NCBI GenBank assembly: GCA_030390025.1
Contig: CM059431.1
Coordinates: forward strand, 136,712,001 to 136,776,000
Direction of reading: 5' to 3'
Source of the DNA: Squalus acanthias
Taxonomy: Eukaryota
DNA length: 64,000 nt
Below the pieces are notes generated by a model. That model had not been told where the DNA came from. It searched no databases and saw only the letters and a program-made list of their open reading frames with translations. The translations under genes and the position numbers were made by a program. This document shows, in pieces, positions 3,465 through 34,379 of this stretch (within the stretch, counting starts at the first letter, position 1; every line of letters begins with the position of its first letter).

Positions 3465-3965
3465 CGTCAGGGTCAGTGGGATATCTTTGACAGCATGGGT
3501 CAGTGGGATATCGATGTTGATCTGCGTCAGTGGGATATCGATATTGGTCAGGGTCAGTGGGATATCGTTGTTGGTCTGGGTCAGTGGGATATCGTTGTTG
3601 GTCTGGGTCAGTGGGATATCGTTGTTGGTTTGGGTCAGTGGGATATCGATATTGGTCTGGGTCAGTGGGATAGCGTTGTTGGTTTGGGTCAGTGGGATAT
3701 CGTTGTTGGTCTGGGTCAGTGGGATATCGTTGTTGGTTTGGGTCAGTGGGATATCGTTGTTGGTCTGGGTTAGTGGGATATCGTTGATGGTTTGGCTCAG
3801 TGGGATATCATTGTTGTTTTGTGTCATTTGGATATCGTTGTTGGTTTGGGTCAGTGGGATATCGATGTTGGTTTGGGTCAGTGGGATATCATTGTTGTTT
3901 TGTGTCATTTGGATATCGTTGTTGGTTTGGGTCAGTGGGATATCGTTGTTGGTTCTGGTTCAGTG
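3465..3965 (+). repeat. 27-bp minisatellite type A (GGGTCAGTGGGATATCGTTGTTGGTYT), about 18 units
   Basis: Tandem units; reverse complement of the 40.3-64 kb array unit. Confidence 0.95.
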
Positions 3966-3979
3966 GGTTTAGATGCAGA

Positions 3980-5002
3980 TCTGGGTCAGTGGGTTGTCGG
4001 AGTAGTGTTGGTTCAGTTGGTTTCCGTGTAGGTCTGGGGCAGGTGGATTTCGGAGTAGTGTTGGGTCAGTGGGATGCCGGAGTAATGTTGGGTTAATGGG
4101 ATGCCGGAGCAGTGTTGGGTTAATGGCATGCCGGAGTAGTGTTGGTTCAGTGGGATGTCGGAGTAGCGTTGGGTTAATGGGATGCCGGAGTAGTGTTGTG
4201 TTAATGGGATGCCGGAGTGGTGTTGGTTCAGTGGGATGTCAGAGTAGTGTTAGGTTAATGGGAAGCCGGAGTAGTTTTGGGTAAGTGGGATTTTCGGAGT
4301 CGTGTTAGGTCAGTGTGATGTCGGAGTCGTGTTAGGTTAATGGGATGCCGGAGTAGTGTTGGTTCAGTGGGATGCCGGTGTAGTGTTGGGTCAGTGGATG
4401 CTGGAGTTCTGTTCGGTCAGTGGGAGGCCGGATTAATGTTTCGTCAATGGGTTTCCGTGTAGGGCTGGGTCAGCGGGTGTCGGTGTAGGGCTTGGTCAGT
4501 GGGATGCCGGAATAGCGTTGGGTGAGTGGGTGTCCGTTTAGGGGTCGGACAGTGGGTGTCCGTGTAGGGCTGGGTCAGTGGGATGCCAGAGAAGTGTTGG
4601 GTCAGTGGGTGTCTGTGTAGGGCTGGTTCAGTGGGATGCCTCAGTAGTGTTGGGTCAGTGGGTGTCTGTGTAGGGCTGGTTCAGTGGGATGCCGGAGTAG
4701 TGTTGTGTCAGTGGGTGTCTGCGTGGGGCTGGGTCGATGGGAATCGGAATAATGTTGGGTCAGTGGGAGGCCAGAATAGTGTTTGTTTAGTGGGTGTCCG
4801 GGTAGGGCTGGTTCAGTGGGATGTCAGATTAGTGTTAGGTCAATGGGTGCCTGTGTAGGTCTGTGTCAGTGGGTGTCTGTGTAGGGCTGGTTCAGTTAGT
4901 GTCTGTGTAGGGCTGGGTCAGAGAGGTGCCGGAGTTGTGTTGGGTCAGTGGGTGTCTGTGTATAGCTGGGTCAGTGGGATGCCGGTGTAATGTAGGGTCA
5001 GT
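3980..5002 (+). repeat. 27-bp minisatellite type B (GGGTCAGTGGGATGCCGGAGTAGTGTT and GGGTCAGTGGGTGTCCGTGTAGGGCT variants)
   Basis: Degenerate tandem units; reverse complement of 39175..40290. Confidence 0.85.
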
Positions 5003-6278: not shown

Positions 6279-6660
6279 AGGAACATAAGAGCAAGAGTAG
6301 GCCATTTGCCCCATCGAGCCTGTTGCGCCATTCAATGAGATAATGGCCGATCTGTAATATGACTCCATATACCCGCCTTTGCCACATATATTATATATCT
6401 GTCAATTTAAGATTTAAAATTAACATTAACAATCCCTCCATGGCCGTTATGCACTTCCTATGGTGTGGTGTCCAGAACTGAGCACAGTACTCCAGGTGTG
6501 GCCTAACGAGGGCTTCGTATAGATGTAGCCTAACTTGTAACCCCTTGTATTCTTGTCTTCTAGATAGAAAGTCCAGCATTTCAGTAGCCTTTTTGATTCG
6601 TGTCTGTACCTCTCCATGACATTTCAACGATCTATGTACATGGACCCAGAATTCATTTTG
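6279..6660 (-). mobile_element. CR1 LINE fragment (3' end plus an ORF2 piece)
   Basis: ORF 6391..6627 contains LYEALVRPHLEYCAQFW. A CR1 3' terminus lies in reverse orientation at 6279..6390. Confidence 0.85.
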
Positions 6661-9600
6661 GATCTCCAGTGATTGTAGCTTTGGAACTCCACTGTTTCTA
6701 GCTTCATGTCTCTCTATTTTCTAGCTTTGGACCTTCAATGTTTCTAGCTTTGGATCTTCACTGTTTCTAGCTTTCGACCTTCACAGTTTCTAGCTTTGGA
6801 TCTCCACTGCTTCAGGCTTTGGATCTTCACTGTTTGTAGCTTTGGATCCCCATTGTTTCTAGCTTTGGACCTCAACTGTTTCTACCTTTGGATCTTCACT
6901 GTTTCTAGCTTTCGAGCTTCACAGCTTCTAGCTTTGGACCTGCAGTGTTTCTAGCTTTGGACTTCCAGTGTTTCCAGCTTCGGAACTCCACCGTTTCTAA
7001 CTTTGGACCTCCACTGTTTTTAGCATTGGAACTCCACTGTTTCTAGCTTCGTGTTTCCTCTATTTTCTAGCGTTGGACCTTCACTGTTTGTAGCTTTCGA
7101 CCTCCACTGTTTCTAGCTTTGGACCTCCACGTTTTGTAGCTTTCGACCTCCACGGTTTCTAGCTTTTGACCTTCACTGTTTATAAATTGGACCTCCAGTT
7201 ACGAGCTTTGGAACTCCACTGTTTCTAGCTTTGGACCTTCACTGTTTCTAGCTTTCGACCTCGACTGTTTCTAGCTTTGGACCTTCACTGTTTCTAGCTT
7301 CGGAACTTCACTGTTTCTAGCTTTGGACCTTCATGTTTCCAGCTTTTGACCTTCACTGTTTCTAGCTTTGGATCTCCACTGTTTCTAGCTTTGGACCTCA
7401 ACTGTTTCTAGCTTTCGATCTCCACTGTTTCTAGCTTTGGACCTCAACTGTTACTAGCTTTGGACCTTCACTGTTTACAGCTTTTGACCTTCACTGTTTC
7501 TAGCTTTGGATCTCCACTGTTTCTAGCTTTGGACCTTCACTGTTTCTAGCTTTGGACCTCAACTGTTTCTACCTTTGGATCTTCACTGTTTCTAGCTTTC
7601 GAGCTTCACAGCTTCTAGCTTTGGACCTCCAGTGTTTCTAGCTTTGGACTTCCAGTGTTTCCAGCTTCGGAACTCCACCGTTTCTAACTTTGGACCTCCA
7701 CTGTTTTTAGCATTGGAACTCCACTGTTTCTAGCTTCGTGTTTCCTCTATTTTCTAGCGTTGGACCTTCACTGTTTGTAGCTTTCGACCTCCACTGTTTC
7801 TAGCTTTGGAACTCCACGTTTTGTAGCTTTCGACCTCCACGGTTTCTAGCTTTTGACCTTCACTGTTTATAAATTGGACCTCCAGTTACGAGCTTTGGAA
7901 CTCCACTGTTTCTAGCTTTGGACCTTCACTGTTTCTAGCTTCGGAACTTCACTGTTTCTAGCTTTGGACCTTCACTGTTTCCAGCTTTTGACCTTCACTG
8001 TTTCTAGCTTTGGATCTCCACTGTTTCTAGCTTTTGACCTCAACTGTTTCTAGCTTTCGATCTCCACTGTTTCTAGCTTTGGACCTCAACTGTTACTAGC
8101 TTTGGACCTTCACTGTTTACAGCTTTTGACCTTCACTGTTTCTAGCTTTGGATCTCCACTGTTTCTAGCTTTGGACCTTCACTGTTTCTAGCTTTGGACC
8201 TCCACTGTTTCTAGCTTTGGACCTTCACTGTTTCAAGCTTTGGACCTCCACTGTTTCTAGTTTTGGACCTTCACTGATTCTAGCTTTGGACTTTCACTGT
8301 TTCTAGCTTTGGACCTTCACTGTTTCTAGCTTTGGATCTCTACTGTTTCTAGCTTTGGACCTTCACTGTTTCTAGCTTTGGACCTTCACTATTTCTAGCT
8401 TTGGATCTCCACTGTTTCTAGCTTTGGACCTTCACTGTTTCCAGCTTTGGATCTCCACTGTTTCTAGCTTTGGACCTCCACTGTTTCTAGCTTTGGATCT
8501 CCACTGTTTCTAGCTTTGGATTACGACTGTTTCCAGATTTGGACCGTCACTGTTTCTAGCTTTGGTTCTCCACTGTTTCTAGCTTTGGATCTTCACTGTT
8601 TCTAGCTCTGGAACTTCACTGTTTCTAGCTTTCGACCTCCACTGTTTCTAGCTTTGGACCTTCACTGTTTCCAGCTTTTGACCTTCACTGTTTCTAGCTT
8701 TGGACCTCCACTGTTTCTAGCTTTGGCCTACACTGTTTCCAGCTTTGGACCTTCACTGTTTCTAGCTTTGGATCTCCACTGTTTCTAGCTTTGGACCTCA
8801 ACTGTTTCTAGCTTTGGATCTCCACTGTTTCTAGCTTTGGACCTGCACTGTTTCCAGCTTTGGACCTTCACTGTTTCTAGCTTTGGATCTCCACTGTTTC
8901 TAGCTTTGGATCTCAACTGTTTCTAGCTTTGGATCTCCACTGTTTCCAGCTTTGGACCTACACTGTTTCAAGCTTTGGACCTTCACTGTTTCTAGCTTTG
9001 GACCTTCACTGTTTCTGGCTTTGGACATCCACCGTTTCTAGGTTTGGACCTTCACTGTTTCTAGCTTTGGACCTTCACTGTTTCTAGCTTTGGATCTCCA
9101 CTGTTTCTAGCTTTGGACCTCCACTGTTTCTAGCTTTGGACCTTCACTGTTTCTAGCTTTGGACCTTCACTGTTTCTAGCTTTGGACCTCCACTGTTTCT
9201 AGCTTTGGACCTTCACTGTTTCTAGCTTTGGACCTTCACTGTTTCTAGCTTTGGACCTTCACTGTTTCCAGCTATGGACCTCCACTGTTTGTAGTATTGG
9301 ACCTTCACTGTTTCTAACCTTGGACCTCCACCGTGTCTAGCTTTGGACCTTCAATGTTTCAGGCTTTGAAACTTCACTATTTCTAGCTTTGCACCTCCAG
9401 TGTTTCTAGTTTTGGACCTCAAGTGTTTCTAGCTTCGGAACTCCACCGTTTCTAACCTTGGAACTTCACTGTTTCTAGCTTTTACCTCCAGTGTTTCTTG
9501 TTTTGGATCGCCACTGTTTCTTGCTTTGGACCTTCACTGTTTCTAGCTTTGGACCTCCAGTGTTTCTAGCTTCGGAACTCCACCGTTTCTAACCTTGGAA

Positions 9601-9772
9601 CTTCTCTATTTCTAGCTTTGGACCTCCAGTGTTTCTAGCTTCGGAACTCCACTGTTTCTAACCTTGGAACTTCACTCTTTCTAGCTTTGGACCTCCAGTG
9701 TTTCTTGCTTTGGATCTCCACTGTTTCTAGCTTTGGATCTCCACTGTTTCTAGCTATGGACCTTCTCTGTGT
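6660..9772 (+). repeat. 23-bp minisatellite (CTAGCTTTGGACCTYCACTGTTT), about 135 units
   Basis: Tandem units, with an internal duplication of about 687 bp. Confidence 0.97.
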
Positions 9773-10064
9773 CTACAACCAAAACTTTATTCTGTTTACC
9801 ATATTTATAAATCACTGATGACAACCGCTTTAAACGCTCCTGTGACATTCGTCTTCGATTATTTTAGCGGCAACTCCAACTTATTTAAAATAAACCACTT
9901 ATTGTCGGGGGAGTTGTTAAAATCAGGGACAACACCAGATCAACAATTTAAAAGTTGTTTTGATGATTCTATCGACAGTCTACCCGAAGCGCTTGTGAAA
10001 GTTTTACTCTGAATTTGCTCAATTCACTTTTCAGTCTAAAACGTTAAATTGTGAGGTTAGATTC

Positions 10065-10604: not shown

Positions 10605-11531
10605 ATGGTGCTCCTAATGAAGTACTACAAATGTTTATTTGTTTGTGTGACCCTTTTGCTGATATCTATAATACTCAGATATTTAAGCATCAACAATTCT
10701 GAGTATTTGACTTACCCAAAGTTAAATGACGCCTCCTACTTAATGCGACCCGATAGCAGGTGTGACGTCAGTCCCCCATTTTTGGTCCTTCTCGTCACCA
10801 GTGCCCAGGACCAGTTCGAAGCTCGCTCGGCCATTCGCCAGAGCTGGGGCAGAGAGCGGACCATACATGACAAAAGGATAGTGACCTACTTCCTGCTCGG
10901 GTACAGCCGGGAGCATCAGGAGCATCTGCTAGAGGAAGGTTTGCTGCACAAAGACATCATACAGAAAGAGTTCAGCGACACTTATTACAACCTGACCACC
11001 AAGGTGCTGATGGGCCTGGAATGGGTGAGCCGATTTTGTCCGTCCGCCTCCTTTGTGATGAAAACCGATTCAGACATGTTTGTCAATGCTGATTATCTGA
11101 CAGAGCTCTTGTCACGAACCAGTCGCAGGCACATCTTCACCGGCTACAGGATATATTCCGGACCCATCAGGGACAAATCCAGTAAATGGTACGTGAGTGA
11201 AGAGGAATACCCTCTGGAAACATATCCGCCATTCTGCTCCGGCACTGGGTACGTGCTCTCGTCCGATGTCGCCTGCCGAGTTTGGAATGTTTCGAAAACC
11301 GTCCCCAAATTGAAACTCGAGGACGTTTTCGTCGCTCTCTGCCTGGCTAAGTTGAAGATAGCGCCGGTGGAACTCCACTCGCGGCAAACATTCTACAATT
11401 CAAAGGTCCAGTTTTCTATTTGCGCCTTTCGGAAACTCGTGACCTCTCACGGGGTGAAACCCGACGAGTTGCTGATCTATTGGAAAGCACTGGCTGATGC
11501 AGCAACTGAGGACTGCCCTGGAGATTCGTGA
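10605..11531 (+). CDS. B3GALT5: Beta-1,3-galactosyltransferase 5-like (GT31 family, type II Golgi membrane protein), 308 aa
   Basis: Intact ORF with an N-terminal transmembrane segment. Motifs PPFLVLLVTS, AIRQSWG, YYNLTTK, FVMKTDSDMFVN (DxD), YPPFCSGTGYV, LEDVFV, ELHS and the C-terminal YWKAL...EDCP match vertebrate B3GALT5 as recalled. Confidence 0.93.
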   Translation: MVLLMKYYKCLFVCVTLLLISIILRYLSINNSEYLTYPKLNDASYLMRPDSRCDVSPPFLVLLVTSAQDQFEARSAIRQSWGRERTIHDKRIVTYFLLGYSREHQEHLLEEGLLHKDIIQKEFSDTYYNLTTKVLMGLEWVSRFCPSASFVMKTDSDMFVNADYLTELLSRTSRRHIFTGYRIYSGPIRDKSSKWYVSEEEYPLETYPPFCSGTGYVLSSDVACRVWNVSKTVPKLKLEDVFVALCLAKLKIAPVELHSRQTFYNSKVQFSICAFRKLVTSHGVKPDELLIYWKALADAATEDCPGDS

Positions 11532-15963: not shown

Positions 15964-16540
15964 ACCTCTGCAAAAATGCCCGCGAAACTGAGATTAACTA
16001 CTCACTGTGGTGCTGCACTCTCCGCTCCCGTCACTGGCCTCTGCAAAAATGCCCGCGAAACTGAGATTAACTACTCACTGTGCTGCTGCACTCTCCGCTC
16101 CCGACACCGGCCTCTTTAAAAAAAAACGCGAAAGTGAGTTTAACTACTCACTGTGCTGCTGCACTCTCCGCTCCCGTCACTGGCCTCTGCAAAAATGCCC
16201 GCGAAACTGAGATTAACTACTCACTGTGCTGCTGCACTCTCCGCTCCCGACACTGGCCTCTGCAAAAATGCCCGCGAAACTGAGTTTAACTACTCACTGT
16301 GCTGCTGCACTCTCCGCTCCCGACACCGGCCTCTTTAAAAAAACCCGCGAAAGTGAGTTTAACTACTCACTGTGCTGCTGCACTCTCCGCTCCCGACACT
16401 GGCCTCTTTAAAAAAAACCGCGAAAGTGAATTTAACTACTCACTGTGCTGCTGCTCTCTCCGCTCCCGACATTGGCCTCTGTAAAAAGCCCGCGAAAGTG
16501 AGTTAAACTAATCACTGTGCTGCTGCTCTCTCCGCTCTCC
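15964..16540 (-). repeat. 73-bp CpG-rich tandem array (about 8 units) at the 5' end of CR1 copy 1
   Basis: Unit AAAAATGCCCGCGAAACTGAGATTAACTACTCACTGTGCTGCTGCACTCTCCGCTCCCGACACTGGCCTCTGC. ORF-track starts recur every 73 bp. Confidence 0.95.
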
Positions 16541-20431: not shown

Positions 20432-21463
20432 TGTCTAGTGGTGTTCCGCAAGGGTCAGTGCTGGGACCCCAACTCTTTACAATCTATATTAACGATTTGG
20501 AGGAGGGGACCAAGTGCAACGTATCCAAGTTTGCTGGCGATACAAAGATAGGAGGAAAAGCTGTGAGTGAGGAGGACATAAAAAACCTGCAAAAGGACAT
20601 CGAAAGGCTAAGTGAGTGGGCGGAAATTTGGCAGATGGAATATAATGTTGGAAAGTTTGAGGTTATGCACTTCGGCAGAAAAAATCAAAGGGCAAGTTAT
20701 TATCTAAATGGAAAGAAACTGCAAAGTGCCACAGTACAAAGCGAACTGGGGGTCCTGGTGCATGAAACAGAGAAGGTTAGTATGCAGGTACAGCAGGTGA
20801 TCAGGAAGGCCAATGGAATCTTGGCTTTTATTGCAAGGGGAATGGAGTATAAAAGCAGGGAAGTCTTGCTTCAGCTATACAGGGTACTGGTGAGGCCACA
20901 CCTGGAATATTGCGTGCAGTTTTGGTTTCCATAATTAAGAAAATATATACTTGCTCTCGAGGCAGTTCAGAGAAGGTTCACTCGGTTGATTCCGGAGATG
21001 AGTGGGTTGACTTATGAGGAAAGGTTGAGTAGGTTGGGCCTCTACTCATTGGAGTTCAGAAGAATGAGAGGCGATCTTATCGAAACATATAAGATTGTGA
21101 AGGGGCTTGGTCGGGTGGAGGCGGGGAGGATGTGTCCACTGATGGGTGAGACTACGCTAGGGGGCATAATCTTAGAATAAGGGGCTGCAATATCAAAACT
21201 GAGATGAGGAGAAACTTCTTCACTCAGAGGGTAGTAAATCTATGGAATTTGCTAATTCAGAGAGCTGTGGAAGCTGCGACATTAAATAAATTTAAAACGG
21301 ACATAGACAGTTTCCTAGCTGATAAGGGAATTAAGGATTATGGGGAGCGGGCAGGGAAGTGGACGTGAGTCCAGGTTCGGATCAGCCATGATCTTATTGA
21401 ATGGTAGAGCAGGCCCAAGGGGCCATATGGCATACTCCTGCTCAGACTTCTTATGTTCTTATG
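20432..21463 (+). mobile_element. 5'-truncated CR1 (RT C-terminal half and 3' UTR), duplicate A
   Basis: SGVPQGSVLGPQLFTIYINDL, KFAGDTK and LVRPHLEYCVQFW; stop at 20932; ttcttatgttcttatg tail. Confidence 0.95.
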
Positions 21464-22712
21464 TGATATGATGCTGTGTCAGTGGGGTGTCGGTGTAGGG
21501 CTCTGTCAGTGTGGTGTGGGACTGTGTCAGTGCGCTTTTGGGCTGGGATTAGTGTGGTACGGGGCTGGGTCAGTGTGTTGCGGAGTGGGGTCAGTGTGGT
21601 GCGGGGTATTGTCAGTGGCGATTTTATTTGGGTTTGTGGCTGGGTCAGTGGGGCATGGGGCTGGGGCAGTGGGTTTTGGGTCTCGGTCTGTTGGGTGAAG
21701 TGCTGGGTCAGTGGGGTTTGGGGCTGGGTCAGTGGGGTGTGGGGATGGGTCAGTGGGGTGCGGGGCTGGGTCAGTGGAGTGCGAGGCTGGGTCCGTGGGA
21801 TGCGTGACTGGGTCCCTGGGGTGCGGGGCTTGGTCAGTGGGGTGTGGAGCTTGGTTAGCGGGGTGTGGGGCTGGGTCAGTGGGGTGTGGGGCTTGCTCAG
21901 TGGGCTGTGGGGCTGGGTCAGTGGGGTGTGGGGTTGGGTCAGTGGGGTGTGGGTCTGTGTCAGTGGGGTGCGTGGCTGGGTCAGTGGGTTGTGGGGCTGG
22001 GTCAGTGGGGTGCGGGGCTGTGTCAGTGGGGTGTGGGGCTGGGTCGGTAGGGTGTGGGGCTGGGTCAGTGGGGTGTGGGGCTGGGTCAGTGGAGTGTGGG
22101 GCTGGGTCAGTGGGGTGTGGGGCCTGGTCAGTGGGGTGTGGGGCTGGGTCTGTGGGGTGCGAGGCTGGGTCAGTGGGGTGTGGGGCTGAGTCATTGGGGT
22201 GTGGGGCTGGGTCGCTGGCGTGTGGGGCTGGGTCATTGGGGTGTGGGGCTGGTTCAATGGGGTGTCGGGCACGGTCTGTGGGGTGCGGGGTTGGGTCCGT
22301 GGGGTGCGGGGCTGGGTCAGTGGGGTGCGGAGCTGGGTCAGTGGGGTGTGGGGCTGGGTCAGTGGGGTGTGGGGCTGGGTCAGTGGAGTGCGTGGCTGGG
22401 TCACTGGGGTGCGGGGCTGGGTCTGTGGGGTGCGTGGCTGTGTCAGTGCGGTTCGGGGCTGGGTCAGTGGGGTGCGGGGCTGGGTACGTTGGGTGTGGGG
22501 CTGGGTCAGTTGCGTGTGCGGCTGTGTCAGTGAGGTGTTGGACTAGGGCAGTGGGGATGGATCTCGGGGTGTGGGGCTGGGTGAGGGAGTGTGTTGCTGG
22601 ATCAGTGGGGTGTGGATTTGGGATTAAGGGATGTCGTTGTCGCACCGGGTGTTCGGGGTGTCGGTATATTGCTGTATGAATTGAGTCACTGTCTGGTGCT
22701 TGGTCAGTGGGG

Positions 22713-23745
22713 TGTCTAGTGGTGTTCCGCAAGGGTCAGTGCTGGGACCCCAACTCTTTACAATCTATATTAACGATTTGGAGGAGGGGACCAAGTGCAA
22801 CGTATCCAAGTTTGCTGGCGATACAAAGATAGGAGGAAAAGCTGTGAGTGAGGAGGACATAAAAAACCTGCAAAAGGACATCGAAAGGCTAAGTGAGTGG
22901 GCGGAAATTTGGCAGATGGAATATAAGGTTGGAAAGTTTGAGGTTATGCACTTCGGCAGAAAAAATCAAAGGGCAAGTTATTATCTAAATGGAAAGAAAC
23001 TGCAAAGTGCCACAGTACAAAGCGAACTGGGGGTCCTGGTGCATGAAACAGAGAAGGTTAGTATGCAGTTACAGCATGTGATCAGGAAGGCCAATGGAAT
23101 CATGGCTTTTATTGCAAGGGGGATGGAGTATAAAAGCAGGGAAGTCTTGCTTCAGCTATACAGGTTACTGGTGAGGCCACACCTGGAATATTGCGTGCAG
23201 CTTTGGTTTCCATATTTAAGAAAATATATACTTGCTCTCGAGGCAGTTCAGAGAAGGTTCACTCGGTTGATTCCGGAGATGAGTGGGTTGACTTATGAGG
23301 AAAGGTTGAGTAGGTTGGGCCTCTACTCATTGGAGTTCAGAAGAATGAGAGGTGATCTTATCGAAACATATACGATTGTGAAGGGGCTTGGTCGGGTGGA
23401 GGCGGGGAGGATGTGTGCCACTGATGGGTGAGACTACGCTAGGGGGCATAATCTTAGAATAAGGGGCTGCAATATCAAAACTGAGATGAGGAGAAACTTC
23501 TTCACTCAGAGGGTAGTAAATCTATGGAATTTGCTAATTCAGAGAGCTGTGGAAGCTGCGACAGTAAATAAATTTAAAACGGACATAGACAGTTTCCTAG
23601 CTGATAAGGGAATTAAGGATTATGGGGAGCGGGCAGGGAAGTGGACGTGAGTCTAGGTTCGGATCAGCCATGATCTTATTGAATGGTGGAGCAGGCCCAA
23701 GGGGCCATATGGCCTACTCCTGCTCAGACTTCTTATGTTCTTATG
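22713..23745 (+). mobile_element. 5'-truncated CR1, duplicate B
   Basis: Near-identical to duplicate A at offset 2281, with the same flanks. Confidence 0.95.
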
Positions 23746-26559: not shown

Positions 26560-26722
26560 GATAAACAGATTTTTAGCCTCCAGGGGAATCAAGGGATATG
26601 GAGACCGGGCGGGAAAGTGGAGTTGAGTTCGATGATCAGCCATGATCTTGTTGAATGGCGGAGCAGGCTCGAGGGGCCGTACGGCCTTCTCTTGCTCCTA
26701 TATCTTATGTTCTTATCTTATG
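26560..26722 (+). mobile_element. Short CR1 3' end
   Basis: gatcagccatgatcttgttgaatggcggagcaggctcgagggg... followed by a tcttatgttcttat tail. Confidence 0.8.
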
Positions 26723-26974
26723 TAACAAGCAAGCTCCTCCGGTAGAACTGGGAGATTCTAGTCGTGGAATGCTCTGTAATAGTGAAATTATTTAACTTGC
26801 TCGATAACATTGAACCACAAATGAGATTTGAGTATTTCAGAGGAGAGGGTTTGATCAGAGAGATGTGCCCAGTTCGACACGTGGGTAAAGAGGTAGACAT
26901 GTGCATCTCCATCTCCAGCCTCCCTTTTCTCTCGATGTTTTGTCGCCTCCCTAATCTCTGCTCATCTATTTCAC

Positions 26975-29940
26975 AGCCTCATGTTTGATTATCTCCATTC
27001 AGGTATCTGCACCTGCCGCAGCAATGAAATGACAATAACTAAAGCCCCAATCGACACATTCTGCGACTGTGACCGTGGAAAGATATCTCTCCTCATTCTT
27101 CTCGGCCTCTGCAGTATTTCATTCGTTCGAGCACATCATGCTCAAACACCTCTCCACCGTTGTCCAGCTCAGTCGGATTGCGCTCGCTTGGTCCCACTTT
27201 GAGCTAGCAAGTCGTAGACAGAGAATTTTTATCAATGGCTTCTTCTGCACTGTCATCTCCGGAGTCGCCAATGGACCTGTGTTCGCCCCATCCTATTACC
27301 CATCTCTACACGGCCCCATCCTATTACCCATCTCTGTACGGTCCCATCCTATTACCCATCTCTGTACGGCCCCATCCTATTCCCCATTTCTGTACGGCCC
27401 CATCCTATTACCCATCTATGTACGGTCCCATCCTATTACCCATCTCTGTACTGCCCATTCCTATTAACCATCTCTGTACGGCCACATCCTATTACTCATC
27501 TCTGTACGGTCCCATCCTATTACCCATCACTGTATGGCCCCATCCTATTACACATCGCTGTACAGCCCCATCCTATTACCCATCTATATACGGCCCCATC
27601 CTATTCCCCATCTATGTACGGCCCCATCCTATTACCCATCTATGTACGGTTCCTTCCTATTACCCTTCTCTGAACTGCCCCATCCTATTACCCATCTCTG
27701 TACGGCCCCCTCCTATTACCCATCTCTGTATGGCCCCATCCTATTACCCATCTCTGTACGGTCCCATCCTATTACCCATCTATGTACGGCCCCATCCTAT
27801 TCCCCCTCTCTCTACAGCCCCATCCTATTCCCCATCTCTGTACAGCCCCATCCTATTACCCATCTCTGTACGGCCCCATCCTATTACCCATCTCTATACG
27901 GCCCCATCCTATTACCCATCTCTGTACGGCCCCATCCTATTATCCATCTCTGTACAGCACCTTCCTATTACCCATCTCTGTACGGCCCAATCCTATTACC
28001 CATCTCTATAGGGCCACATCCTATTACCCATTTCTGTACGGCCCCATCCTATTACCCATCTCTGCACGGCCTCATTCTATTACCCATCTCTGTACGGTCT
28101 CATCCTATTACCCATTTCCGTACGGCCCCATCATATTACACATCTCTGCACGGCCCCATCCTATTACCCATCTCTGTACGGCCACATCCTATTACTCATC
28201 ACTGTACGGTCCCATCCCATTACCCATCACTGTATCGCCCCATCCTATTACACATCGCTGTACAGCCCCATCCTATTACCAATCTCTGTACGGCCCCATC
28301 CTATTACCAATCTCTGTAGAGCCCCATGCTATTACCCATCTCTGTAAAGCCCCATCCTATTACCAATCTCTGTACGGCCCAATCATATTACCCATCTCTG
28401 TACGGCCCCATCCTATTACCCATCTCTGTACGGTCCCATCCTATTACCCTTCTCTGAACTGCCCTATCCTATTACCCATCTCTGTATGGCCCCCTCCTAT
28501 TACCCATCTCTGTACAGCCCCATCCTATTACCCATCTCTGTACGGCCCCATCCTATTACCCATCTCTATACGGCCCAATCCTATTACCCGTCTCTGTATG
28601 GCCCAATCCTATTACCCATCTCTATACGGCCCAATCCTATTACCAATTTCTATACGGCCCCATCCTATTACCCATCTCTGTACAGCCCCATCCTATTACC
28701 CATCTCTGTACGGCCCAATCCTATTACCCATCTCTATACGGCCCCATCCTATTACCCTTCTCTGTACAGCCCCATCCTATTAGCCATCTCTGTGTAGCCC
28801 CATCCTATTACCCATCTCTGTAGGGCCCCATCCTATTACCCATCTCTGTGCAGCCCCATCCTTTACCCATCTCTGTACGGCCCAATCCTATTACCCATCT
28901 CTATACGGCCCCATCCTATTACCCATCACTGTACAGCCCCATCCTATTACCCATCTCTGTACGGCCCAATCCTATTACCCATCTCTATACGGCCCCATCC
29001 TATTACCCTTCTCTGTACAGCCCCATCCTATTAGCCATCTCTGTGCAGCCCCATCCTATTACCCATCTCTGTACGGCCCAATCCTATTACCCGTCTCTAT
29101 ACGGCCCCATCCTATTACCCATCTCTGTACGGCCCCATCCTATTACCCATCTCTGTACTGCCCCATCCTATTACCCATCTCTGTACGGTCCCATCCTATT
29201 ACCCATCTCTGTACGGCCCCATCCTATTACCCATCTCTGTACGGCCCCATCCTATTACCCGTCTCTGTACGGCCCCATCCTATTACACACCTCTGTACGG
29301 CCCCATCCTTTTACCGATCACTGTACGGCCCCATCCTATTACCCATCTCTGTACGGCCCCATCCTATTATCATTCTCTTTACGGCCCCATCCTATTACCA
29401 ATCTCTGTACGGCCCCATCCTATTACCCATCTCTGTACGGCCCCATCCTATTACCCATCTCTGTACGGCCCCTTCCTATTACCCATCTCTGTACGGCTCC
29501 ATCCTATTACCCATCTCTGTACGGCCCCATCCTATTACCCAACTCAGTGCTGCCCCATCCGTTTACCCATCTCTGTATGGCCCCATCCTATTAACAATCT
29601 CTGTACGGCCCCATCCTGTTACCCATCTTGTACAGCCCTATCCTATTACCCATCTTGTACGGCCCCATCCTATTACACATCTCTGTACGGCCCTATCCTG
29701 TTACCTATCTCTGTACGGTCCAATCCTGTTACTCATATCTGAGCGGTCCCATCCTATTCCCCATCTCTGTACGGCCCCATCCTGTTACCCTTCTCTGTGC
29801 TGCCCCTTGCCGACATTATGTGAAGCCAAGGTTCAGCTTTCACATGTACACCGACAACAATCTGCTCCAATTCTCCACCACCTCCCTCGCCCCCTCCACT
29901 GACTCTGCTTTGTCACGCTACTTCTCCGACAGCCATCCTA
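26975..29940 (+). mobile_element. L2-clade RT fragment split by an internal 28-bp array
   Basis: Left flank: CDCDRGKISLLILL, HLSTVVQLS.IALAW, TVISGVANGPVF. Right flank: LPLADIM..SFHMYTDNNLLQFSTTSL (degenerate YADD). Confidence 0.85.
27285..29797 (+). repeat. 28-bp minisatellite (GGCCCCATCCTATTACCCATCTCTGTAC), about 90 units
   Basis: Tandem units; the translation repeats every 28 aa (three units). Confidence 0.97.
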
Positions 29941-29944
29941 GATA

Positions 29945-30545
29945 AGCTTCATACGTGTCATTAACCTCGGATGCTTCACCTCTGGACCGGGTGACTTAGC
30001 CATTTTGAGGATTGTCAGTCTTTTAATTAACTCTTCTTTATCTATTGTTATCCTATCCAAAATCGTAACCACCTCCTTTCCTGCTAAACTGGAAGTATCT
30101 TCGATATTGAAGACAATTGCACAGCACTCATTTAGTACCGCAGCTACGCCCTCTGACTCCACGGCAATGTCTCCCTTTTCTCCATAATCGACGCCACCTT
30201 TCCTTTTATTACGCATTTAATATTTCCGTGTATTTAATGTCTTGTGTTGTCCCTTTTATTTTAGCCGCTAATCTATTCTCCTACTCTTTGTCCCGTCCTA
30301 TTCCCTTGTTTAGATCGCCACTGTATCTTTTATATTCATCTTGCTTCTCTACTGTATTATGAACCTCACATTTGTCATAAGTCTACATTTTCTGCCTCCT
30401 GTTAACCTCTATATCTTTAATCACCCAGTGAGCTTTAACTTTGGATGCCCTTCCTTTCCTCTCGTGTGAATATGTCGAAACTGTCATCTCCTCTTTGAAG
30501 ACCTCGCATATGCTTGTTTAGCTTCCAGGCCAGTATTCTGTTCAA
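29945..30545 (-). mobile_element. Old CR1 ORF2 linker fragment
   Basis: VAAVLNE...VF, KSPGPEVKHPRL (degenerate KSPGPDGMHPRVL). Confidence 0.7.
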
Positions 30546-31199
30546 TTCGCACACACAATCAGTCAGTAATCCATTCAAAACATTCAACCTGCCCTGTGGT
30601 AGAATATTATTACGTCGACTTTTTTTGGTCGCACTCCCGCCTTTGAGTCACGAGGGGGAGACAGGACATCGCGGGGGTAGAGAGGCCATCGCAGGGGGAG
30701 AGAGGAGATCGCAGGGCGAGAGGACACAGCAGGGGGAGAGAGGACATATGTTCTTATGTTATTATGCTCTTATTGAAGAGAAACATTAGGACTTGCCGGC
30801 CTGGTATTGAAGGAACCATTTTCCCAATCGGTAACTGCATTCAGTGAAGATAATATGAAATGGACTCAGTAAATTCTGGGGGATTTTGTGCGTATTCAGT
30901 GAGACTCTGGAGTACTTTGAATAATTTTGACGTATCCTTGTGATGGATGGGGAATAAGACCTGCAGCAGGATGGGGAAGGAGTCAGGGTAGGTAATGAGG
31001 CATTGAAGAGGTGGAAGGGAAAGGGCAGGGAGAGTAAATATAGAGCTGGAGCGTGTAGGCAGAATCAGGCACTGTGCAGGAGGAGAGGGTGGAAAAAGGG
31101 AGAGTTAAGATTGTAGCAGTTGGGGAAGGGAAAGAAGATCAGAATCCAGTATCAGAATAGTTTGGGCACCAGACATGAAGCACTGGAAGGAGCGGCACA

Positions 31200-31650
31200 A
31201 AGAAAAATCTTGCATTTATGTAGCGCCTTGCACGACCTCAGGAGGTCCCAAACCTCTTTACAGCCAATGAAGTGGAGTCACTGTTGTAATGTAGGCAACA
31301 AGGCAGCCAATTGGCGCACAGCAAGCTCCCACAAACAGCAACGTAATTAGGAAGAGATATACTGTTTTTGTTATTATGTTGATTGAGGGATAAATATCAG
31401 CCAACACACCGAGAATAACTCCCCTGCTCTTCTTTGAAATATTGCCAAGGAGTCGTTTACGTCTATCAGAGAGAGCAGACAGAGCCTCGGCTTAACATCT
31501 CATCTGAAAGACGGAAAGTCCGACATTGCAGCACTCCCTCAGCACTGCACTGGAGTGCCTCCCTACATTTTTGTGCTCAAGTCTCGAGGAGTTGGACTGT
31601 GAACCCACAACCTTCAGACTCAGAGGCGAGAAGCTACCCACTAAGCCACG
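31200..31650 (-). mobile_element. tRNA-derived SINE with an L2-type tail (SacSINE1/DeuSINE-like)
   Basis: A box TGGCTTAGTGG (31638-31648), B box GGTTCACAGTCC (31594-31605), central gtgctgcaatgtcgga..tttcagatgagatgttaa, and 3' tail ..aaggcgctacataaatgcaag. Confidence 0.8.
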
Positions 31651-33087
31651 GATTACACTTAAGAAGGAGGAAGCGGGATCACACATGGAGGATTCAGGAG
31701 ATATATTACTAAGTTTTAATCTTTATGTTAAAAGCAAATTCTAATTAGAAAATTAACGTAAGGTTCAGAGTTCTCATCTCATAATGAATTGAATCCGCTA
31801 ACCGATATTTTTTTAAAGAATGAAATGAACAGGTGAATCTACAGTAAAAGTTACCAATAAAAGTTAGCTTGTCAATGATACAAATAGCTAGCTTGTTTAC
31901 CGCCCACATTTGCCGATTAATTTTCAGTCAGTGAAACCCGGAGCCTGAGACTCCTGGGTGTGAACATGCTGATCGAGGCCCAGATTTACTTATTAACTGG
32001 AGATTCGCTCCCGGATTTTATAATCGTTGCTGTGTTGCTAATGAATGACCATCATTGGAAAATAACCGGTAACCAGTCATGTGACGGGAATTGTAGCTCT
32101 CCATGTCAATCCAGATCAGGTGAACATTGTATTAATCCTGATACCCAGTTTAATAGAACCGGGATCTTAAGGAATTACATTTACACAGAGTTAGAATCGG
32201 GTCAAAGAAACAGCTAATGATTGAAAGTAAGGTAATTCCAAAACATTAACGCGTTGACTCCGAAAGCTCACTGTGCTCTTCCCTCTGCTGTTTGGTCCCA
32301 ATAAACTAACATTGATCTTTGTCCCTTGCTATCTGTGCCCTTGTAAAGCCTGATAATAAAGAGATTTAATGGTGAGCAATATAATCCTACTGTTGACAAG
32401 GAACTGGTTCTGGCTACAGAACGCGGCTTCTCTGTGGCATTGTCTGAACCCCAGATGGAAGAGATGCGGGAAATATAGTCATTGTAACCTTACACTGAAT
32501 GAATGACTTTGGTTATAAGATCAAATTTCTCACAAGGATTCAAACTGAATGAGACCGTGTGTGATTCAGATCGAGACCTTCACCAGAGAACAGGGCGGGG
32601 AAGGATTGTACTGATCAGGCTGAAGGTGGTGTTTATGACTGTGATCGGTAACTGATATTTACCCAGGGTGTGTTCATTAACCTGCTGAGCACACAACGTT
32701 AAATTACCCAGAGTCTGTGGAACAAGAATCAGGAGTCGCAGGACAAGGTAAGGACCTGGATTAAACCGAGCACCATTATCGTGTTTTAATGTAGCAGAAC
32801 TGACCCATCGTCCTTTATTTGTACAGCAGGTCGATGATATTGAAAAGTTGAGCAATCAATAACGAATTAGGAAAGATTCTTTTTTTTTTAGTAATTGACT
32901 GCTTGCCGCCGCGTCATTTAATATAATAAAACGTACAAATCTCACACACTAACATTCCGCCATTGGAAATAGTATAGAAATGTATTTCTAGTTAATGACA
33001 TGCTTATGAACAAACAATTAGAGATCGAAACTTTTCAACATACACCATATCCTCTCAGCCGCTCCTCTCGCGTTTTATGGCCTTTTG

Positions 33088-34345
33088 CACTAGAGGTGAC
33101 CAAGCCCCTCTTGTACTAGAGGGAACCCTGCACTTACACTAGAGGTGATCATGCTCCTGCGGTACCAGTGGTACACGACACTATCACAAGAGGTGACCGT
33201 TCTCCTCTGGTATAGTGGGACCCTGCACTTACACTAGAAGTGACCATGCTCCTGCGGTATTAGTCTACAGGTACATTTAAACTGCAGGTGACAGTGCTCC
33301 AGCCGTAATAGTGGTAACCCTAAACGTACATTAGAGATGAACAAGCTCTTCCAGTACAAGCGGTCCCCTACACTTACACTAGAGGTGACTGAGCTTCTCT
33401 GGTACACGGGGAACCCTAGACTTACACGAGAGGTGAAAGTACTCCTCCGGTATTGGTGGTGCCCCAATATAATAGTAGAGATCACCATTCATATCCAGTA
33501 CGAGAGGGACCATGCACTTAAACAAGAGGTGACCGTGCTCCTCTGCTACTGGTGGTACAACTGCACTTATATAATAAGTGAACATGCTAATGTGGTACTA
33601 GTGGTACCCTAAACATACACGAGATGTGACTGTGCTCATCCTGGTATCATTGGCATCCATACAATTCGACTAGAGGTGACTGTGGTTCTCTGGTACTATT
33701 TGTACCCCTACACTTACACAAGAGGTGACCGTGATCATTGCATATTAGGGGTGCCTTAAAGATATACGTGAGATGAGCGTCCTGCTCGAGCACTAGTGAA
33801 ACCCCACACATAAATGAGAGTTGATTATGCTTCTTCAGTACTAGTGGTGCAGGCACACTTACACTGCAGGCGACATGTCTCCTCGTGTACTAGGGATACC
33901 CTAAACGGACACACAAGTGGCGACCGTGTTCTTGCATTACAAGTTAGCCCCTACACTTACACTCGAGGCGAACCTCCGCCTCCGGTACTGGTGGTATCCT
34001 GCACTCACACTTAAGGTGAAAAGACACTTCCGGTAAAAGTGGTGGCCCAGAATTATAGTAGAAGTGATCGCCCTCCTCCTGTACTAGTGGTTCCCTACAT
34101 TTACATTAGAGGTGAAGGTGTTCCTTCGTTACCAGTGTCACCCTTCAATTATGCTAGGGGTGATTGTGCTCTACTGCTACGACCGATACCCCAACACATA
34201 AACTGAAGGAGAACGTGCGCCTTCAGTACTTTGGTTACCCCACATTTACACTAAAAATGATTGTGCTCATCCGTACTAGTGCTACCACTGCACTTACACT
34301 AGAGGTGAGCATGCTCCTCTGGTACTAATACCCTACACTTACACA
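33088..34345 (+). repeat. Degenerate tandem repeat, about 48-bp unit (approx. CACTTACACTAGAGGTGACCGTGCTCCTCTGGTACTAGTGGTACCCTA), about 26 units
   Basis: TAGAGGTGA-like anchors at 33091, 33140, 33188 and 33235, continuing to about 34300. Confidence 0.85.
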
Positions 34346-34379
34346 AACCTGTGCAAACATTTTTGCGTGAATCTGCTAA

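Follow-up and report, generated by a model that had tools for sequence, protein, structure and literature searches.

The stretch of DNA analyzed here (64,000 nucleotides, hereafter the window) is, as a whole, repeat-rich and shark-like, and the best matches of its L2-type C-terminal frame are two Heterodontus proteins. It contains a 28-bp minisatellite of 90 units, flanked on both sides by sequences that profile comparisons assign to the reverse transcriptase (RT) of an L2-type element. The parts of the locus are as follows:

26942..27284, + strand: left flank, a predicted decayed L2-type ORF2 fragment, with RT up to a GVPQG-like motif (profile matches)
27275..27289, + strand: left end homology, in which the 10 nt that close the flank resemble the tail of the unit and are followed by the first GCCCC
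27285..29801, + strand: 28-bp minisatellite of 90 units (TRF, decomposition), assigned to codons G-P to M-L of the RT motif
29802..29806, + strand: terminal GCCCC, which begins an incomplete 91st unit and doubles as the L-P codons at which the RT resumes
29802..29937, + strand: right flank, where the predicted RT resumes, up to the YADD motif (core profile positions 167-209)

TRF placed the array at 27285-29806 (period 28, 90.2 copies, 88% matches), and decomposition yielded 90 units, 87 of 28 nt and three of 27 nt, which together occupy 2,517 bp and are followed by the closing GCCCC, in agreement with the roughly 90-fold array given in the preliminary description. The units differ from the array consensus by a mean of 1.9 mismatches (6.8%), and from one another by 12.5%. 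A search of the window for the unit, allowing up to three mismatches, returned 76 matches, all within the array, with none expected from 100 shuffles. The head-to-tail arrangement, the unit size, and the copy number (90 x 28 bp, against an upper range of about 100 copies) are those of a minisatellite. The array is bounded by GCCCC at 27285 and 29802, with a looser end match over approximately 16 nt. With one 5-mer standing at both of its ends (n units plus a partial unit, bounded by a direct repeat in the 5-10 bp range), it bears the signature of the Haber-Louis model.

Blocks of units have been duplicated within the array. Shared variants peak at a lag of 9 units (units 49-54 resemble units 58-63) and at a lag of 25 units (units 8-10 resemble units 33-35), and these peaks were equalled by none and by one of 500 shuffles, respectively, counts that amount to modest evidence only, since 59 lags were tested. 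Divergence is highest in the last ten units, with 3.1 mismatches each, compared to 1.2-2.4 in the other blocks of ten, and 18 of the 90 units have CA or TG in place of the CG at their end. Block duplication by unequal exchange, poorer homogenization at an end, and decay of methylated CpG would leave such patterns.

Other arrays and LINE-derived sequences are present in the window, together with one intact open reading frame:

1-1800, - strand: L2-type element with endonuclease, linker, and 3′ end (the latter near position 1), RT core deleted near 590-620
6657-9775 (flank 6430-6660): 23-bp array, 136 copies, with a CR1-type ORF2 fragment on the - strand
10605-11531, + strand: intact single-exon open reading frame of 308 amino acids, beta-1,3-galactosyltransferase-like (Pfam Galactosyl_T, E 2.4e-51)
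15965-16537: young 73-bp array, 7.9 copies, 91% matches, adjoining (by eye) a CR1-like element on the - strand at its 5′ end
20438-21465 and 22719-23745: two near-identical, 5′-truncated CR1-type 3′ fragments, approximately 2.28 kb apart
33088-34350: old 48-bp array, 62% matches
39169-64000: 27-bp array, at least 880 copies, running off the end of the window

The galactosyltransferase-like gene sits among the arrays. The 23-bp array continues in register into its CR1-type ORF2 fragment (score 92, compared to a shuffle maximum of 42); the proposal that CR1 sequence lies on both sides of it was rejected, as the other side scores 24, within the range of the shuffles. The two CR1-type fragments have the same array flanks, indicating a local tandem duplication, and both start at GVPQGSV codons directly behind a 21-bp array. 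The short words that this 21-bp array has in common with the GVPQGSV motif possibly mark a microhomology join at the 5′ end. All 27-bp arrays and 21-bp arrays share a GGGTCAGTG core, and the same two 27-bp unit types recur at 3470-5002, in inverted orientation and in a short form. Derivation of the 21- and 27-bp GGGTCAGTG arrays from the CR1 GVPQGSV codons was not supported, as 45-500 of 500 shuffles scored as well with the two CR1 copies tried.

Comparisons of the flanks and of the unit relied on protein and DNA reference sets. The window's own L2 C-terminal frame retrieved three matches among 91 candidates in a search for shark L2 RT proteins, none of which contained an RT core, and a fish-type protein set was therefore used. 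It consisted of the best 120 of 831 relatives of the L2-type C-terminus, mostly from fish where named, and 106 of these fish-type LINE proteins, all with a PQGS motif, formed the RT core profile. The DNA reference was drawn from the best 80 of 517 metagenome loci, of which 21 without an ungapped motif block were dropped; the 59 that remained were reduced to 55 distinct loci for the DNA profile by removing near-identical ones. In viral contigs, the L2-type C-terminal query found a single weak locus, which was left unused, and the unit pattern found no match.

Both flanks are assigned, from their profile matches, to one decayed L2-type ORF2 fragment. The left flank matches a 57-sequence full-ORF2 profile at the consecutive positions 517-573 (i-E 3.7e-6) and 573-637 (i-E 6.9e-5), and the RT core profile at positions 38-156 with 53.9 bits. 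It carries a frameshift and has lost sequence in frame at two places, and a single nucleotide is missing at the array junction. The peptide SGVANGPVF, with which this flank had been said to end, is encoded at 27258-27284. The right flank, read preliminarily as LPLADIM..SFHMYTDNNL, is likewise present, and reads PLADIM, a stop, a 1-nt deletion, and FSFHMYTDNNL at the YADD motif. By itself it is weak (i-E 0.96 with the full-ORF2 profile; one of 200 shuffles as good with the DNA profile). As a colinear continuation of the left flank, it adds 14.3 bits, a gain reached by none of 150 shuffles and none of 150 random stretches of the window. The fragment breaks off near 29930-29937, with no 3′ tail following the right flank. 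It spans profile positions 517 to approximately 690 of 937 (about 170 codons) and is thus an internal fragment; neither an endonuclease domain nor an L2 3′ tail was found in the array-bearing copy. Pfam matched none of three flank translations, and phmmer with the 82-aa left-flank frame returned no match at E<=0.001 among 1.84 billion proteins, indicating that the flanks are too decayed to be found by general searches without a family-specific profile. At the DNA level, the 60 nt adjoining the left junction alone scored no better than shuffles (86 of 200 reached its score).

The assignment to the L2 type follows the sequence and spacing of the RT motif in the flanks, which are of this type rather than of the CR1 type (91 nt, compared to 93 nt in the fetched proteins). 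In the CR1-type RT that the window itself contains, the spacer is three residues shorter than in the L2 type, and the motif differs. The fetched reference proteins are taken by us to be L2 proteins from their motifs; none of their source names says L2, and Pfam found only RVT_1 and an endonuclease in the fetched protein P0021. One could suppose that the array arose in a still-mobilized L2 subfamily and spread with its flanks by retrotransposition. Dispersal of minisatellites borne by transposable elements (TEs) has been described (PMC6947457, in the parts used here), as have internal repeats of LTR12 and L1PA (PMC3389668, in the parts used here). However, a fragment of about 170 codons that is broken on both sides, lacks a 3′ tail, and carries a stop and three frameshifts makes this origin highly improbable.

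Collapsing the array revealed how the two flanks are related. Frameshift-aware alignment to the RT core profile gave 60.4, 71.2-72.9, 70.3, and 58.6 bits for constructs with zero, one, two, and three units, respectively, and the one-unit construct covered profile positions 38-209 continuously and in order. At the protein level, one unit exceeds two by just 2.6 bits, but the count between fixed motifs is clear. Of 105 fetched proteins, 104 place the P of PQGS and the Y of YADD 31 residues (93 nt) apart, and in the window this distance amounts to 63, 91, and 119 nt with zero, one, and two units. The shortfall of 2 nt is accounted for by the loss of two single bases, at the left junction (profile position 157) and in the right flank (profile position 173), so that the join is colinear, but not ungapped. 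When aligned to the DNA profile of 55 loci, only one-unit constructs extended across both flanks; plain tblastn of the fetched proteins against the collapsed sequence gave weak pieces only. One unit thus best restores the RT spacing, and the flanks and unit form one RT fragment in register. The collapse to a single unit, advanced earlier as a check against a shark consensus, does yield a continuous RT alignment (72.9 bits, with the profile of 106 fish LINE cores in place of such a consensus), whereas the expectation of an ungapped RT across the junction is contradicted by the two 1-nt deletions.

The unit also carries a signal of its own. One of its frames reads GPILLPISV, as originally described. 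In a scan of every rotation, strand, and offset over the 59 loci (8,232 placements), the consensus, unit 1, and unit 90 each scored best at the G-P to M-L codons. Their scores were matched by 20, 2, and 14 of 500 shuffles, respectively, in three tests that are not independent. The unit is, from this placement, homologous to a defined TE segment, the GP-to-ML codons, and is judged to be L2-type RT coding DNA. Its likeness to LINEs is modest, as 12 of 200 shuffles of its inner 23 nt scored as well with the DNA profile. In the collapsed alignment to the RT core profile, the real unit aligned better than shuffled spacers of the same length by approximately 8 bits (72.9 bits, compared to a mean of 64.5; n=8). 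The identity of the unit to distant LINE loci is moderate (median 14-15 of 28, best 19 of 28), as would be expected if an unrelated satellite had landed in an L2 fragment by chance, its likeness to the motif being coincidental. That explanation is barely credible, given that the unit alone finds the correct register among the 8,232 placements and exceeds the shuffled spacers, and that an exact deletion of one unit's worth of RT would be needed as well.

The ends of the array point to the site of the initial duplication. After a 1-nt shift, the left flank agrees with the unit tail at seven of its final 10 positions (binomial p ~0.017 over three shifts), a level reached in one of the 59 LINE loci at their own equivalent place. 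The unit tail fits the codons before G-P and those before L-P about equally (means of 4.9 and 4.0 of 11), and the order of the means is reversed for the tail of unit 90 (3.8 before G-P and 4.7 before L-P, of 11), whose end resembles the downstream RT codons. Both tail fits and the 7/10 flank match suggest a crossover within an imperfect repeat of approximately 16 bp with GCCCC at its end. Alternatively, the end homology could stem from array sequence that later spread into the left flank. The preliminary description placed the amplification between two GCCCC words; both words do bound the array, but the homology at its ends may extend over approximately 16 bp rather than 5.

In distant LINEs, the paired GCCCC words were both exact in none of the 59 loci, with 4/5 matches in three, and the 16-nt self-match of the site is not outstanding (rank 432 of 3,645). 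Absent from distant LINEs, the microhomology would be a property of the array's own family or copy. The idea of a hotspot, in which LINE RT DNA is generally self-similar at 28 bp in this place, was unsupported in the 59 loci and in the 55 distinct ones. If paired microhomologies were present in every shark L2 copy, several 28-bp arrays could have been born independently. This is rather improbable, as the hotspot signal is absent in the 55 distinct distant LINE loci, and as the exact 31-mers and recognizable units found in another organism (organism A, see below) point to the descent of one unit.

The unit is not confined to this locus. Four of eight sequencing runs (X1, X2, X5, and X8) were compared with 29718-33050 at 80% likeness, with X3, X4, X6, and X7 (shares 0.09) set aside. 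Of the word content of 26720-30650, 9-12% is present in seven of the eight runs, and half is reached in none. Summed contig depths over the last three units are 1,390, 19,846, and 791 in X1, X2, and X5, respectively, and those over the L2 right flank are 48, 2,150, and 59. Contigs of X1 and X5 that closely match window DNA have a depth of 2-3 (2.3 in X1; 2.4-3.2 in X5), and the 90 local units, counted over three places, would be expected to give a depth of approximately 50-70 before contig overlap. These values suggest that many more than 90 units exist elsewhere, with the caveat that contig depth is no copy number. Contigs of X5 are identical to the window, indicating the same or a very close species. 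X2, from organism A, contains recognizable units in array-type joints, and exact 31-mers in common with the array stretch. One X2 contig (86%) covers 29832-29993 and so crosses the point where the L2 fragment breaks off on the right, and an X1 contig (96%) lies at 29815-29966; from these contigs, the fragment and the unit are either shared beyond this assembly or multi-copy. A multi-copy contig aligns to the right flank at 29833-29937 (85%). The contigs are short, and among the pieces listed none runs from flank to array. X8 (organism C, raw reads, approximately 6% read) contained no unit, but is uninformative, as merely 28 of its reads matched at all. Within the compared stretch, 31174-31630 is SINE-like and of very high copy number, with a summed contig depth of up to 3.2 million in X2. 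The sequence at about 31750-33050 is of low copy number.

The abundance of the unit bears on whether the array was born at this locus, which may instead be a copied cassette or hold a patched-in array. A satellite born from the same L2 motif elsewhere could have been copied here later, with the local 28 bp replaced through gene conversion or homology-directed repair. Guided by homology, the junctions would fall in register equally well, and the depths in X1, X2, and X5 are also predicted, although spread from the array's own cassette explains them equally. Such a repair event would have been anchored on imperfect homology of at most approximately 16 bp per side, and would have removed exactly one unit's worth of L2, with otherwise only single-base loss or duplication. 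It is therefore unlikely, though less so than the other alternatives considered above. The birth of a satellite from an L2 RT motif, as originally proposed, agrees with the L2-type unit, flanks, and spacing; its localization to this very site is less secure, given a unit depth far above that of 90 units, and the presence of the unit in organism A. It is conceivable, but doubtful, that a satellite family which came to occupy tens of kilobases elsewhere, and is common to shark-like species, was born at this locus, where both of its parental flanks would be preserved intact; LINE ORF2 coding DNA would in that case be a main repeated source of large satellites in this lineage.

The reading that we consider probable is a microhomology-mediated duplication, from one copy to two, in an already decayed L2 copy, followed by expansion and then by spread, with the locus being either original or a copied cassette. 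In the first step, a pair of short, similar stretches of the RT motif, spaced by 28 bp, would have mispaired during replication or repair, doubling the 28 bp; these stretches would be the GCCCC words at G-P and L-P, possibly as part of the longer imperfect 16-bp repeat. The doublet would then have grown to 90 units by slippage and by unequal exchange, of which the block duplications are the visible trace, with the interior kept homogeneous and the terminal units more diverged. In a third step, the unit would have spread as a larger satellite family, and the locus would be either its place of origin or a segmental copy with both flanks retained. The array is most likely neutral, non-coding repeat DNA, and no function is proposed.

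Several known systems resemble the array in part. TE-derived minisatellites in the human genome comprise 7,276 loci (Ahmed and Liang 2012, PMC3389668); 601 of them derive from L1, and 300 lie between direct repeats of 5-20 bp. Supplementary table 3 of that paper, in the portion considered, gives 36, 37, and 202 occurrences for L2a, L2b, and L2c. As in those loci, a tandem repeat appears to have grown in place from part of a TE; unlike the human L2 cases, which have 2-3 units in the six rows examined, it has reached 90 units. Under the Haber-Louis model (Haber and Louis 1998; Jurka and Gentles 2006, as cited in the relevant parts of PMC6947457 and PMC13167724), the signature of which also appears in the sections of PMC3389668 considered, and under microhomology-mediated tandem duplication, a segment flanked by short repeats is doubled and expanded, leaving n units and one extra repeat. 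The array follows this pattern, but, in contrast to the model's starting point, no single-copy ancestor is seen here, and the microhomology is deduced from the ends of the array. Satellites related to LINE ORF2 include chicken HinfI (CR1), Phodopus PROsat, and seal Pvc20 (L1), which are tabulated in PMC9659126. Like these, the array is tandem DNA with LINE ORF2 sequence. In the entries of that table, the LINE piece is part of the monomer, or similar to a region of it, whereas here the whole 28-bp monomer would be RT coding DNA, with both parental flanks attached in register. Small shark chromosomes contain more simple tandem repeats (PMC10620051, the examined passages of which are silent on LINE-derived units). 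A literature search returned no title that deals with a shark satellite derived from the RT motif of an L2 element, a weak absence, since subscription papers were thinly covered and the term L2 is unsearchable. Transposon-derived minisatellites, including L2-derived ones, are already in print in the sources considered, and the array is a clear but ordinary further example.

The first step of satellite formation is seldom visible, as the flanks are usually lost or scrambled. At this locus, both flanks and the register survive, and the starting duplication can therefore be placed within a few bases. If the locus is indeed the preserved birthplace, it would provide a dated series within one genome, from a single motif to a 90-mer and to a larger array. 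If larger 28-bp arrays descend from the cassette, they would offer a test, in a slowly evolving vertebrate, of the transition from minisatellite to satellite and of the microhomology model.
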